Of a stretch of 60,245 nt of DNA, positions 5,132-7,574 are shown piece after piece. The first letter of the stretch is position 1. Every line of letters starts with the position of its first letter. The position numbers and the translations under genes are program-made. The stretch covers positions 1 through 60,245 of the forward strand of contig JBBDKX010000038.1 of assembly GCA_040879145.1 (NCBI GenBank), read 5' to 3'. Source of the stretch: Candidatus Spechtbacterales bacterium. GTDB taxonomy: Bacteria; Patescibacteriota; Minisyncoccia; Spechtbacterales; 2-12-FULL-38-22. A model generated the notes under the pieces. That model was not told where the DNA came from. It did no database searches and saw only the letters and a program-made list of their open reading frames with translations.

Positions 5132-5160
5132 TTGTCTATTGGTGTGAATTATGGTATATT
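5132..5160 (+). promoter_or_regulatory. Sigma70-like promoter TTGTCT-17-TATATT with TG-extended -10
   Basis: TTGTCT is at 5132-5137, followed by a 17-nt spacer and TGGTATATT with the hexamer at 5155-5160. This places a start about 20 nt upstream of the tRNA-like fragment at 5185. Confidence 0.45.
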
Positions 5161-5184
5161 TCATGTGAAAAGTGGCCACAAAAA

Positions 5185-5230
5185 GCGCCCGTAGCTCAAC
5201 CGGATAGAGTGGTCCGATGTTCATCGGACA
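5185..5230 (+). pseudogene. 5' tRNA fragment (acceptor and D arm of tRNA-Arg type, aberrant anticodon arm, no T arm)
   Basis: 5185-5211 (GCGCCCGTAGCTCAACCGGATAGAGTG) equals the first 27 nt of the intact tRNA at 5509 with 1 mismatch. It is followed by a stem TCCGA/TCGGA with loop TGTTCAT, which lacks U33. No T arm or 3' acceptor strand follows. Confidence 0.6.
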
Positions 5231-5254
5231 GGTGGTGGAGTTTTAATACTTATC

Positions 5255-5518
5255 ATGAAAACAGGGATTTATATTCTAAAATGCTCTAACGGTAGATTTT
5301 ACATAGGTAGCACAAATAACATTGATAGAAGAATAGAAGAACATAAAAATGGACAGGTTATATATACAAAAAATATTTTACCTGTTAAACTACTCCTGTT
5401 TCATCCCTGCACAACAATAAAAGAAGCAAGGCAAATAGAATATAAACTAAAAAGACTAAAAAACCGCACAATTATAGAAAAGATAGTTCAGGATGGAACT
5501 ATAAACATGCGCCCGTAG
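5255..5518 (+). CDS. Small GIY-YIG nuclease family protein (URI/UPF0213-type)
   Basis: 87 aa. GIYILKCSNGRFYIGSTNNIDRRIEEHKNG followed by KLLLF...EARQIEYKLKRL matches the GIY-YIG core. The last 10 nt, including the TAG stop, lie inside the tRNA-Arg gene. Confidence 0.85.
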   Translation: MKTGIYILKCSNGRFYIGSTNNIDRRIEEHKNGQVIYTKNILPVKLLLFHPCTTIKEARQIEYKLKRLKNRTIIEKIVQDGTINMRP

Positions 5519-5582
5519 CTCAACTGGATAGAGTGTCTGGCTTCGGACCAGAAGGTTGGGGGTTCGAATCCCTCCGGGCGTA
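5509..5582 (+). tRNA. tRNA-Arg (anticodon TCG)
   Basis: Hand-folded cloverleaf: acceptor GCGCCCG/CGGGCGT, D arm GCTC-AACTGGATA-GAGT, anticodon arm TCTGG-CTTCGGA-CCAGA, T arm GGGGG-TTCGAAT-CCCTC, discriminator A. No encoded CCA. Confidence 0.85.
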
Positions 5583-5630
5583 CTAATAATTAAAACACCT
5601 ATTTCAGTAGGTGTTTTAATTATTAGTACG
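5579..5630. terminator. Long palindrome (20-bp perfect stem, extendable to about 24 bp) overlapping the tRNA-Arg 3' end
   Basis: ACTAATAATTAAAACACCTA (5582-5601), loop TTTCAG, then TAGGTGTTTTAATTATTAGT (5608-5627). The flanking GCGT/ACGC extend the pairing. Confidence 0.7.
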
Positions 5631-5690
5631 CGGGATTCGAACCCGCGGAGGGGTCCCGCCAGAGGCGGGCAGGCGGGGAACCGTTGAGTA
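5628..5690 (-). pseudogene. tRNA-like 3' fragment (canonical T arm, no matching 5' acceptor strand)
   Basis: The minus strand reads ...CCCGCCTCTGGCGGGACCCCTCC GCGGG TTCGAAT CCCGC GTA. The T stem-loop is canonical, but I could not fold an acceptor stem or D arm. The segment is GC-rich. Confidence 0.4.
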
Positions 5691-5773: not shown

Positions 5774-7084
5774 ATGAAATTGGGCATTAAATTTTTCTTA
5801 ATTTTTGCAGTGTTGGTATCTGTTGCCGGTTTTTTTGTTGTAGAAGATGTCTCTGCTCAAGGGCAGTATTATTGCCAAATGAGTACTGCGGGGTGTGTAT
5901 TAGACCCGGGAATATCTCCAACCTGTCAACAGGGATATACATATGACTGCGGTCAATTCACAACGCTTTCCTCTTGTTTTAATAATCCACACACTTGTGA
6001 AATAGCAGGCAATCAATTTTCCTGTAATTACGATTTCGGAAGAAGTACATGCAATATAGACAGTAACAACAGCACGTGTGACACAGGTAAATCAGATAAT
6101 TGTTCCAACTGGAATAATGACCCCGCAGGATGTGAAAACGCTTTTGGCACATGCGTAGTAGGAATTCCCCCTGGTGAGGACTGCATGGTAACCTTCCCTG
6201 ACCCATGCTACGACGGAACAGGAGAACACTCATGCATAGCTTATGATGATTCCGGTACGGTTGGAATTTGCCAGCCAAATCCTTGTGAATCTACGGCACA
6301 GTGCCATGGAGGATATGAATGCCTTAGTGGAACATGTCGCCCGGGAGGTTCAAAGGCCCCGCTTGGAGTAAATGAAAAGACATGCATATGGGATACGCTT
6401 TATGGAAGGTGTGTACCTACAGGTACATGCAGGGCGGGGTATGAGGGTTACACTTTTGCTGAATGTAGTGCGTATCCCACCGAAGAAGAGTGTACGGCAG
6501 TACCTAACACAAGCTGTGATTTAATAGCTGAGTTCGGTGGAGAAGACTGTTTCGCGCGTTGCATAGAAGATCCCAATAATACCACCGCAGACCCTGTACG
6601 ACCAGGGGCAAACGACATATGCAATGCTAAGTGTAAAACAAATTTCAAACGATGCGATACAGACGGGGATTGTAAGTTTTTAATAGGGGAGGGTTGGAAG
6701 TGTATTCCAAACGATGTCACAGGAATGGGTATATGCCAATTTGAGCCTGATAAGATTTGTAATGCCGGAGGATTATTGCCCTGTGGAGGAACAGGATGCC
6801 CCTGCCAGCTTTGCGATGTATTTATTGTAATAAACAGAGTGGTAGATTTGCTTCTCTTTACAATAGCGCCCATACTTGTATCTATAATGGTTATAGTGGG
6901 TGGATTCTTTGTTATGACATCACGCGGTGCCGGGCAATTACGAAAAGGTAAGGAATTTATAAAGTGGGCCATTCTTGGATATTTATTAATGCTAACAGCA
7001 TGGGTAATTGTAAACAGCATACTTACTGTATTAGATCTGGCCACATGGGTTGGCGCAGGGGATTGGTGGGACCCAAACTGTTAA
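5774..7084 (+). CDS. Secreted Cys-rich protein with C-terminal TrbC/VirB2-like two-helix pilin module
   Basis: It has a signal peptide MKLGIKFFLIFAVLVSVAGFFVVEDVSAQ and about 40 Cys by hand count. The C-terminal hydrophobic hairpin has a short basic loop (GGFFVMTSRGAGQLRKGKEFIKWAILG), like the modules at 26635-32598. Confidence 0.55.
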   Translation: MKLGIKFFLIFAVLVSVAGFFVVEDVSAQGQYYCQMSTAGCVLDPGISPTCQQGYTYDCGQFTTLSSCFNNPHTCEIAGNQFSCNYDFGRSTCNIDSNNSTCDTGKSDNCSNWNNDPAGCENAFGTCVVGIPPGEDCMVTFPDPCYDGTGEHSCIAYDDSGTVGICQPNPCESTAQCHGGYECLSGTCRPGGSKAPLGVNEKTCIWDTLYGRCVPTGTCRAGYEGYTFAECSAYPTEEECTAVPNTSCDLIAEFGGEDCFARCIEDPNNTTADPVRPGANDICNAKCKTNFKRCDTDGDCKFLIGEGWKCIPNDVTGMGICQFEPDKICNAGGLLPCGGTGCPCQLCDVFIVINRVVDLLLFTIAPILVSIMVIVGGFFVMTSRGAGQLRKGKEFIKWAILGYLLMLTAWVIVNSILTVLDLATWVGAGDWWDPNC

Positions 7085-7105: not shown

Positions 7106-7145
7106 AAATCAATAAGTCCTCCGATATCGGAGGACTTATTGATTT
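7106..7145. terminator. Perfect 40-nt palindrome downstream of the Cys-rich gene
   Basis: AAATCAATAAGTCCTCCGAT / ATCGGAGGACTTATTGATTT form exact reverse complements with no spacer. Confidence 0.7.
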
Positions 7146-7167
7146 AAGGCAAAACACGTGATATAAA
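7139..7167 (+). promoter_or_regulatory. Sigma70-like promoter TTGATT-17-TATAAA upstream of the tRNA-Lys fragment
   Basis: TTGATT is at 7139-7144, followed by a 17-nt spacer and TATAAA at 7162-7167. The -35 overlaps the right arm of the palindrome. Confidence 0.45.
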
Positions 7168-7203
7168 AAGGAGTGTCTTCACTATAAATATCAAATTTCC
7201 GGT

Positions 7204-7250
7204 CCGCCCATAGCTCAATTGGCAGAGCAGTTGCCTCTTAAGCAATTGGT
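7204..7250 (+). pseudogene. 5' fragment of tRNA-Lys (acceptor 5' strand, D arm, anticodon arm; no T arm)
   Basis: 7202-7250 is identical over 49 nt to 7404-7452 of the intact tRNA-Lys. The two copies diverge exactly after ...GCAATTGGT. Confidence 0.8.
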
Positions 7251-7405
7251 CGGGCCCTCTAATTAAAAACTGGGGTGCATTTGACGGGATTTATTTTGCA
7301 AATATTCTAGGCGTTTGGAGTGACGCGATGTTGAAACATCGTTAGCGACAAAGAACACTAAAGATTGGCAAAATAAACCCGCCCTTTTAAAACCCAGTTT
7401 CCAGT
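7251..7405 (+). other. 155-nt structured insert between the tRNA-Lys fragment and the intact tRNA-Lys
   Basis: It contains nested complementary segments. AAACTGGG (7267-7274) pairs with CCCAGTTT (7393-7400). CGGGATTTATTTTGC (7285-7299) pairs with GCAAAATAAACCCG (7368-7381) with one bulged A. There is an inner hairpin at 7325-7342. No ORF is present. Confidence 0.4.
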
Positions 7406-7478
7406 CCGCCCATAGCTCAATTGGCAGAGCAGTTGCCTCTTAAGCAATTGGTTCCAGGTTCAAGTCCTGGTGGGCGGA
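7406..7478 (+). tRNA. tRNA-Lys (anticodon CTT)
   Basis: Cloverleaf: acceptor CCGCCCA/TGGGCGG, D arm GCTC-AATTGGCA-GAGC, anticodon arm GTTGC-CTCTTAA-GCAAT, T arm CCAGG-TTCAAGT-CCTGG, discriminator A. Confidence 0.9.
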
Positions 7479-7536
7479 CTGGGAATTGGGTTGGGGGCAC
7501 AAATCAGACTTTTGCCGGATTTTCATGTGAAAGATA

Positions 7537-7565
7537 TTGCCTAAAATATTATTATATGTTATCAT
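7537..7565 (+). promoter_or_regulatory. Candidate promoter TTGCCT-17-TATCAT for rpsO
   Basis: The hexamers are at 7537-7542 and 7560-7565. The -10 ends 9 nt before the rpsO ATG, implying a very short or absent leader. Confidence 0.4.
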
Positions 7566-7574
7566 TATCTCTAT

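Follow-up and report, generated by a model that had tools for sequence, protein, structure and literature searches.

Transfer RNA (tRNA) genes are standard attachment (attB) sites, and the known tRNA-integrating elements carry the 3′ part of the tRNA, from the anticodon loop or the T loop onward, and leave the promoter-proximal copy intact. Group I introns interrupt the tRNA itself, usually in the anticodon loop, and splice to one mature tRNA. In phage T4, SegB is encoded by a free-standing GIY-YIG homing endonuclease gene that resides in a tRNA gene cluster (PMC2330249). In the rRNA genes of the candidate phyla radiation (CPR), short (<200 bp) non-intron insertions without open reading frames (ORFs) have been described, which are structured, unclassifiable, and variable between close relatives (PMC11270868). 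In this work, we analyzed a tRNA-Lys(CTT) locus in a 60,245-nt stretch (the window, to which all coordinates and the + strand refer) of a contig from Candidatus Spechtbacterales, within the CPR (Patescibacteria); the bacterium is tiny and uncultured. At this locus the intact tRNA-Lys gene is separated from its ancestral promoter by a truncated copy of its own 5′ part and by a structured insert. Relative to the empty site of related genomes, this arrangement is an insertion or replacement that leaves the promoter before a dead copy, and it is independent of a GIY-YIG cassette found at the tRNA-Arg locus of the same window. In the broadest terms, the locus is probably a non-functional DNA scar. 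We found no published description of such a layout in the literature.

Two tRNA genes were called in the window by ARAGORN and Rfam, namely tRNA-Arg(TCG) at 5509-5583 and tRNA-Lys(CTT) at 7406-7479. The neighbors of the latter encode a CCA-adding enzyme, a pilin-like protein, S15 (rpsO), an NYN protein, and PNPase (ORF list and Pfam). The locus itself is composed of the following features:

7139-7172, + strand: ancestral tRNA-Lys promoter, with TTGATT at 7139, a 17-nt spacer, TATAAA at 7162-7167, and AAGG
7196-7250, + strand: repeat copy 1, an 8-nt leader plus tRNA-Lys nucleotides 1-47
7201-7256, + strand: T-arm-less pseudo-tRNA by fold prediction, copy 1 closed by TGGTCGGGCC pairing with GGTCCGCCCA
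7251-7397, + strand: orphan insert, an imperfect palindrome with nested helices 7267-7274/7393-7400 and 7285-7299/7368-7382
7281-7308, + strand: weak promoter-like site inside the insert, TTGACG-16-TATTCT, with 9/12 consensus matches (consensus scan only, no evidence of function)
7317-7351, + strand: conserved apical core of 35 nt, which holds the hairpin CGATGTT-GA-AACATCG
7391-7405, + strand: 5′ strand of the extended helix, a 15-bp acceptor extension and the 3′ end of the insert
7398-7452, + strand: repeat copy 2, the leader plus the first 47 nt of the intact tRNA-Lys
7406-7479, + strand: intact tRNA-Lys(CTT), called by ARAGORN and by Rfam (70.4 bits), CCA not encoded
7478-7495, + strand: 3′ strand of the extended helix, in which 7481-7495 is the lineage-specific GGGAATTGGGTTGGG

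Self-BLAST gave 49/49 identity between 7202-7250 and 7404-7452, and this exact copy begins two bases before the tRNA and runs to its nucleotide 47, taking in the 5′ acceptor strand, the D and anticodon arms, and the variable loop, in agreement with the extent given in a preliminary description of this DNA. The repeat is in fact longer, covering 55 nt (7196-7250 and 7398-7452) with a single mismatch (G7201/A7403), and a weak extension reaches back to 7182/7384 (69 nt at 90%). Because the repeat comprises the 5′ part of the tRNA and its leader, the intact tRNA-Lys is displaced from the promoter. The two 49-nt copies are separated by 153 nt that are ORF-less, as had been stated, save for one 31-codon GTG frame on the minus strand. 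The claimed order of promoter, 5′ copy, ORF-less structured insert, and intact tRNA thus stands as a formal layout, and so does the observation that the tRNA-Arg locus 2 kb upstream is formally alike. A group I intron was considered and does not fit, since the downstream tRNA is uninterrupted, the junction lies at nucleotide 47/48, and no intron model matched.

This arrangement is not an assembly artefact, because Logan unitigs from public metagenomes cover 7221-7433, including both unique junctions. A unitig from X1, the source metagenome (sediment), is identical to the window at a depth of ~70, and one from metagenome X2 differs by three substitutions; X3 yielded a partial unitig only (7154-7321). 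The arrangement is real and heritable, being present in three metagenomes with strain-level substitutions.

For comparison, relatives were gathered as 80 GTDB loci and 80 metagenome loci found via S15, plus two closer contigs found via a protein database. The best S15 matches were metagenome-assembled genomes of Candidatus Spechtbacterales, with up to 86% identity (GTDB species representatives); a lookup of the exact S15 protein gave no record. Four of the loci (L041, L002, L003, and L004) have one tRNA-Lys each, with neither insert nor partial copy. The site in L041 (72% nucleotide identity) is plain and reads pilin-like stop, TTGATA-17-TATAAA-AAGG, 10 nt, tRNA-Lys, and rpsO; the comparison with an empty tRNA-Lys locus that had been proposed thus returned a simple promoter-tRNA-Lys-rpsO order in species-level relatives. 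The window promoter is homologous to the promoter just upstream of L041's single tRNA-Lys, which backs the earlier placement of TTGATT-17-TATAAA before the fragment and not before the intact gene. Because the same promoter precedes the single gene in L041, the ancestral promoter now drives the truncated copy. Our consensus promoter scanner omitted this site because TATAAA fails the scanner's T6 rule. On the other side of the intact tRNA-Lys, the first sequence that is significantly similar to the L041 trailer is the rpsO promoter (alignment p = 0.004). The intervening GGGAATTGGGTTGGG is absent from L041 and also from L173 (S15 99%, 88% nucleotide identity), the trailer of which reads ACT-aaga-AGCGATAAATCC, while the X1/X2 strain variant has it. 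The sequences on either side of the intact tRNA-Lys, namely the insert as far as 7403 and GGGAATTGGGTTGGG, are complementary to each other and specific to this lineage.

The insert contains a 40-nt imperfect inverted repeat (70%) in which 7267-7306 pairs with 7361-7400, and the nested helices named in the preliminary description are present, as is its inner hairpin at 7325-7342. Folded alone, the insert reaches −43.1 kcal/mol (z = −2.8 as RNA and −3.2 as DNA). The minus-strand hairpin is predicted to be at least as stable, and hence the fold gives no signature of an RNA strand. The three strain substitutions (strain-level variants only) comprise one that mends a hairpin mismatch, one that turns A-U into G.U, and one at an unpaired position; together they shift the hairpin energy from −43.1 to −49.0 kcal/mol. 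A scan with Rfam 15, as had been suggested, returned tRNA hits only at gathering and permissive thresholds (E ≤ 5) and matched no family in 7251-7403, with group I introns, ribozymes, Y RNA, and tmRNA among the families covered. The suggested search for other copies had a mixed outcome. Self-BLAST found no second copy in the 60-kb window, and BLASTN/nhmmer found no homolog in 173 related loci drawn from GTDB genomes, JGI metagenomes, and Logan/ENA contigs, but the 35-nt core (7317-7351) recurs with five mismatches in a second contig of X1. This contig (369 nt, depth 76.8 versus ~70 for this genome) shares the core only; its flanks, GCAAAAGAATGAATCGG... and ...ACGGTTTATTCTTTTGC, are unlike the insert arms yet pair with each other with two G.U pairs. 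A scan of IMG/VR for the core gave two exact matches, both chance hits in coding DNA.

In its general appearance, the insert resembles repetitive extragenic palindromic (REP) sequences and bacterial interspersed mosaic elements (BIMEs), miniature inverted-repeat transposable element (MITE)-like sequences, and Rickettsia palindromic elements, all being ~100-150 nt long, imperfectly hairpin-forming, ORF-less, and intergenic. A further likeness to palindromic repeats is that at least one more partial copy, the 35-nt core, exists in the same metagenome. Dispersed repeats of the MITE or REP kind have several copies in a genome, conserved ends, and, in many cases, a target-site duplication; for this insert, no second copy was found in 60 kb, and one other X1 contig carries the 35-nt center alone. 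Contrary to the pattern of MITEs, it has a conserved center between differing arms, and no recognizable target-site duplication and no associated transposase were seen. The short insertions in CPR rRNA genes (PMC11270868) are similar in that they occur in the same organism group and are short, structured, and associated with stable RNA genes. However, those insertions interrupt the mature rRNA, whereas the mature tRNA-Lys is uninterrupted and the insertion is offset by the duplication.

The truncated copy and the intact gene are both predicted to lie in extended structures. At its start, the insert has six bases (CGGGCC) that pair with GGTCCG at 7201-7206 and, with the variable-loop TGG, re-form an acceptor-like helix. 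The fragment, with this helix re-closed, is therefore recognized as a tRNA lacking the T arm; the Rfam tRNA model gave 31.6 bits to 7204-7254, compared with a gathering score of 29, with the T arm skipped. The intact tRNA-Lys is enclosed by a 22-bp helix (7391-7412/7471-7492), in which the 15 nt of 7391-7405 pair with the 15 nt of 7478-7492. Two transitions keep the trailer from being fully complementary to the leader, and each still allows a G.U pair on the transcribed strand. The full region folds at −124.5 kcal/mol (z = −6.6). Positions 7393-7400 are contested by the 22-bp helix and the outer helix of the insert, and the 22-bp helix wins in the full fold. A long duplex around a stable RNA, here 22 bp including the acceptor stem, recalls the rRNA leader-trailer stems that serve as RNase III substrates. 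A leader-trailer processing stem is unusual for a bacterial tRNA.

The perfect identity of the duplicate had been taken to imply a recent event or ongoing conversion, and neither is needed. The tRNA-Lys of L172 is identical at 76/76 positions despite 76% genome-level identity, and copies of different origin would match anyway because tRNA-Lys is invariant across the clade. The Lys structure predates the split of strains that are ~4% apart (13/348 in rpsO). At that divergence about one substitution is expected in 49 nt, such that zero is unremarkable.

The locus that looks most similar lies in the same window. The 87-aa ORF at 5255-5518 encodes a GIY-YIG domain protein (Pfam, E = 7e-15), with homologs of 47-56% identity on unrelated contigs. 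Seven independent loci, including that of the window, share one cassette architecture:

5185-5583 of the window: GIY-YIG/H-hairpin cassette locus
1403-1960 of L161: cassette locus
1469-1998 of L162: cassette locus
1440-1900 of L163: cassette locus
1442-1915 of L164: cassette locus
1470-1887 of L167: cassette locus
760-1215 of L171: cassette locus

The tRNAs hit by these cassettes are Arg(TCG), Arg(GCG), Ala(GGC) in three cases, Asp(GTC), and Val/Ala. In each of the seven, an identical or nearly identical 5′ tRNA copy of 27-29 nt has its anticodon arm swapped for the palindrome CCGATGNNCATCGG, which has an 8-nt loop, AUGNNCAU. The cassette ORF encodes 85-106 aa and ends on the TAG of tRNA positions 8-10 in four loci (window, L162, L163, and L164); in the remaining three, it stops 1-64 nt before the downstream tRNA, and an intact tRNA follows in all. 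About half of the loci (L162, L163, L164, and L171) also have a 3′ partial tRNA copy with the same palindrome. The sequence CGATGNNCATCG is confined to cassette loci, except for one chance hit in coding DNA, and occurs once in the window (5215-5226). It may be speculated that the palindrome, with its 2-nt center, fits a dimeric GIY-YIG cut that leaves 2-nt 3′ overhangs. A scan of IMG/VR for the H unit gave no match, and we found no description of this tRNA 5′-copy/GIY-YIG architecture in the literature. In X1, a single unitig (depth 59) spans 5216-5489, and a second strain (depth ~28) covers the flanks with a 13-nt indel at 5168-5180; in X2 (flank depth ~20), no contig matches the cassette. 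The cassette is therefore a presence/absence polymorphism (5168-5535).

The preliminary description offered the Lys insert as a possible non-autonomous relative of the GIY-YIG insertion. That the insert is a decayed or non-autonomous member of the GIY-YIG/H-hairpin family, mobilized or created by that nuclease, is now very improbable. The Lys locus does share with SegB (PMC2330249) and with the cassettes the insertion at a tRNA gene with an intact tRNA downstream, and the formal layout is the same as that of the cassettes, an insertion in a tRNA whose 3′ end carries the tRNA 5′ part. In addition, the inner hairpin, CGATGTT-GAAA-CATCG, resembles the H motif of the window, CGATGTTCATCG, apart from four added bases and, like the Arg copy, has GAGTG before it, and GGGATTTAT...ATTCTA at 7286-7309 matches the GIY codons at 5264-5278. 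However, these matches are post hoc and not collinear, and local DNA alignment of the insert with the cassette gave p = 0.066. Unlike the GIY-YIG systems, the Lys locus has no ORF, H palindrome, in-tRNA stop, 3′ copy, or detectable homology, and its copy 1 retains the true anticodon arm, GTTGCCTCTTAAGCAAT, which all seven cassette loci replace. A covariance model of the H unit hit only 5202-5238, with nothing in 7139-7500 at E ≤ 10 with filters off. The GIY-YIG family hidden Markov model (HMM) gave 2.3 bits on the six-frame translation of the insert, within the background of 4,818 tiles; Pfam found nothing in the insert frames, and there is no GIY-YIG ORF between the Lys 5′ copy and the intact tRNA. 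As for a 3′ partial tRNA copy, no significant tRNA-like segment was found in 7480-7574, and such a copy is likewise missing at the Arg locus of the window. In X2, where strains carry the Lys insert and the adjacent gene is covered ~20×, no GIY-YIG sequence was detected at ≥85% identity, and the minor X1 strain, which has a 13-nt indel before the tRNA, also lacks it. Homology is thereby largely refuted. Because both the X2 and the minor X1 strains lack GIY-YIG, that insertion is younger than, and independent of, the Lys insert, and the likeness between the Lys and Arg layouts is formal only.

Three further candidates were rejected. A decayed GIY-YIG gene in the insert (GGGATTTAT..., KDWQNKPALL) was ruled out by Pfam and the family HMM. 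The H-like reading of the inner hairpin (CGATG-N6-CATCG, unique in the window) was made post hoc and was ruled out by the covariance model and the local alignment. A reading of 7486-7509 as what is left of the 3′ end of the resident tRNA, minus the T arm, did not reach significance.

Other rearrangements were found at the tRNA-Lys locus of relatives. In L172 (S15 93%, 76% nucleotide identity), the identical tRNA-Lys lies at 1552-1627 on the opposite strand, in the same position between the pilin-like gene and rpsO. In L173, a ~160-nt GC-rich element and a 21-nt duplicate of the tRNA 3′ end lie downstream of tRNA-Lys; an Rfam search of this locus found tRNAs only. In L001 (2792-3262), the elements downstream of the intact tRNA-Lys are, in order, a repeat of its nucleotides 23-38, an insert of 76 nt with two hairpins, a repeat of nucleotides 39-73 and the terminator, a GC-rich element, and a repeat of nucleotides 56-73, again with the terminator. 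With its three 3′ partial copies, this layout is a 3′-side mirror image of that in the window. The unrelated metagenome contig L081 (3331-3444) has a 19-nt 5′ tRNA-Lys copy with one mismatch, a 22-nt spacer, and the intact tRNA-Lys, a miniature 5′-copy layout like that of the window. The L172 inversion, the 3′ duplications with inserts in L173 and L001, and the 5′ copy in L081 indicate that the tRNA-Lys locus is a hot spot in this clade.

GC-rich elements of 65-180 nt without Rfam match occur just downstream of tRNA-Arg or tRNA-Lys in the window (5626-5690), L041 (1505-1625), L003 (3165-3295), L001 (3065-3250), L173 (20-200), and L172 (1-95). They have an inverted T-arm-like start, usually end in a direct copy of the tRNA 3′ end, and form at least two sequence families across genomes and tRNAs (L041 and L003, 71% over 103 nt; L001 and L173, 81% over 47 nt). 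In the window, a perfect 24+24 nt inverted repeat (5578-5631) starts inside the tRNA-Arg 3′ end (GCGTA...) and acts as a terminator hairpin; it is followed at 5632-5650 by an inverted T-arm/acceptor fragment of another tRNA-like sequence.

The specific account that we favor, tentatively and as a plausible one, is that the locus is a foreign or ectopic insertion or replacement scar and that the tRNA is now cut from a read-through precursor. The recombination, read-through, and processing steps that we infer would be as follows. In a recent ancestor of the lineage, a plain promoter-tRNA-Lys-rpsO locus would have been struck by foreign or ectopic DNA that consisted of a ~135-nt orphan palindromic element, a short leader, and the first 47 nt of tRNA-Lys or, more likely as the third part, a whole tRNA-Lys with the matching inverted repeat on its 3′ side. 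The complete gene would thus have been rebuilt downstream, and the original 5′ two-thirds would have been left on the ancestral promoter as the T-arm-less pseudo-tRNA. The breakpoint follows tRNA nucleotide 47 and coincides with a TGGT, a microhomology that is found again beside the T arm. The likely route would be recombination, either one-sided homologous or illegitimate, or else the insertion of a small element that is non-autonomous and is not a GIY-YIG cassette. The 3′ third of the resident gene may have been exchanged for a single segment (hairpin, leader, tRNA-Lys, and inverted repeat), joined illegitimately at one end and by a homologous crossover near rpsO at the other; in a second version, the insertion would have been smaller (7251-7452) and the trailer would have evolved afterwards. 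Transcription from the ancestral promoter would then run through the pseudo-tRNA and the hairpin, with the real tRNA cut from a long precursor. The 15-bp leader-trailer duplex would extend the acceptor stem to 22 bp and bias the tRNA 3′ end toward its genuine 5′ half over the decoy. Judged from the predicted fold, this helix may be long enough for an RNase III-type processing stem, and RNase P, 3′ trimming, and the CCA-adding enzyme would complete the maturation of the tRNA.

Several points weigh against this account. We found neither a donor locus nor a further complete copy of the insert, such that the recombination route is not demonstrated, and both the read-through transcription and the processing are putative steps. 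The L173 contig starts inside tRNA-Lys and covers the downstream side of the comparison only. One pair of the helix that closes the pseudo-tRNA, G7201-C7256, is compensatory relative to A7403-T7480. The segment 7196-7262, copy 1 with its closure, is unchanged in X2 and X3 though the neighboring DNA is ~4% different (neutral P ~0.01-0.1), which is mildly suggestive of constraint or conversion. Strain substitutions that repair the helix or keep it through G.U pairing hint at selection on the helix, and the core in a second contig at the same depth, with different complementary arms, is as much in line with a structured RNA or a dispersed repeat family as with junk DNA.

These points bear most directly on the possibility that the T-arm-less tRNA-Lys mimic, the hairpin, or both are functional under selection and, released together with the tRNA, serve as a decoy, a leader element, or a processed small RNA. 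We regard this as unlikely. It would be in keeping with a copy 1 that is driven by the tRNA promoter and passes the Rfam gathering threshold with its acceptor helix re-formed, with the lack of substitutions in 7196-7262 in three strain populations, with the strengthening of the hairpin by strain substitutions, and with a 35-nt core kept between different but complementary arms. However, the structure is missing from all species-level relatives, belongs to no Rfam family, shows no strand asymmetry, and has a moderate z-score (−2.8 for the insert) with just three informative substitutions. A search for RNA runs with this organism returned none. An alternative of similarly low probability is that 7251-7495 is a small non-autonomous tRNA-replacement cassette with its own tRNA-Lys between 15-nt inverted repeats, which would insert into the resident tRNA-Lys, truncate it, and substitute for it. 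The logic of such a cassette would be like that of the GIY-YIG/H-hairpin family, in which a complete tRNA lies beside H-capped partial copies of the same tRNA.

The suggestion of an att-site scar holds in the broad sense of a recombination scar and fails in the classical one. That the 55-nt repeats are the attL and attR of a tRNA-targeting integrase element since lost almost entirely is slightly less likely than the two possibilities above. As in partial tRNA duplications at attL/attR, the tRNA-derived direct repeats (7196-7250/7398-7452) bracket non-homologous DNA missing from the empty site, a complete tRNA is kept at a gene class commonly used as attB, and the same tRNA has been struck repeatedly in related genomes, where the small inserts between tRNA 3′-end repeats resemble integrase footprints. 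Here, however, it is the leader and nucleotides 1-47 that are duplicated, with the intact copy promoter-distal, whereas known elements duplicate the 3′ part; the remnant is just ~150 nt and one continuous palindrome; and no integrase or recombinase gene lies within 3 kb (neighboring genes examined, insert ORF-less). Still less probable is an old tandem duplication of tRNA-Lys, in which copy 1 lost its T arm by deletion between the TGGT repeats at 7449-7452 and 7468-7471, the 55 nt were kept identical by gene conversion, and the insert is the old inter-tRNA spacer. The identity block does stop exactly at TGGT, ACTGGG follows both copies, TGGTCGGGCC aligns with TGGGCGGACT at 7/10 positions with a compensatory leader pair, and tandem tRNA-Lys pairs occur in the CPR loci L043, L054, L059, and L129. 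Yet a second tRNA-Lys gene was seen at this position in none of the Spechtbacterales relatives examined, the model would leave unexplained the 15-nt insertion in the trailer that is specific to this lineage, and alignments of the spacer with the copy 2 trailer and the copy 1 leader gave no significant similarity (p = 0.17-0.52). The insert is thus unlike its own flanks, and a simple tandem duplication finds no support.

Two regulatory features adjoin the locus:

7106-7145, + strand: terminator of the upstream pilin-like gene, a perfect 20+20 nt palindrome whose 3′ arm holds the −35 box
7537-7565, + strand: rpsO promoter, TTGCCT-17-TATCAT (consensus scan)

The terminator stem has compensatory changes in an 89%-identical co-occurring lineage (TCCTCCGAT/ATCGGAGGA versus CCCCGGAT/ATCCGGGG). 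The gene upstream of it (5774-7084) encodes a 436-aa cysteine-rich secreted protein with a C-terminal type IV secretion system (T4SS)-pilin-like domain (PF18895, E = 3e-5) and is syntenic between tRNA-Arg and tRNA-Lys across Spechtbacterales. The 12-mer TTTCATGTGAAA, an inverted repeat (TTTCA..TGAAA), occurs at 5159-5170, just downstream of the −10 box of the tRNA-Arg promoter, and at 7521-7532, shortly before the rpsO promoter. L041 and L173 have it conserved at the corresponding places, and it may be an operator or promoter-proximal element.

A single-copy essential tRNA gene that is stably inherited although its own dead copy and an orphan hairpin lie between it and its promoter is a modest curiosity, and the GIY-YIG/H-hairpin family and the plasticity of tRNA loci are more interesting than the Lys locus itself. 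T-arm-less pseudo-tRNAs can pass tRNA model thresholds, and annotation pipelines should expect them. Should processing indeed be directed by the extended acceptor helix, the locus would be an example of a reduced genome rescuing tRNA expression after an insertion. If tRNA-replacement cassettes exist, they would make tRNA genes mobile cargo in CPR genomes, which would also explain the inverted identical tRNA-Lys of L172. The Lys locus is one data point in a pattern seen in Spechtbacterales and other CPR bacteria, where small rearrangements concentrate at tRNA genes as 5′ and 3′ partial copies, inversions, and small structured inserts, with the GIY-YIG cassettes as one well-defined class.

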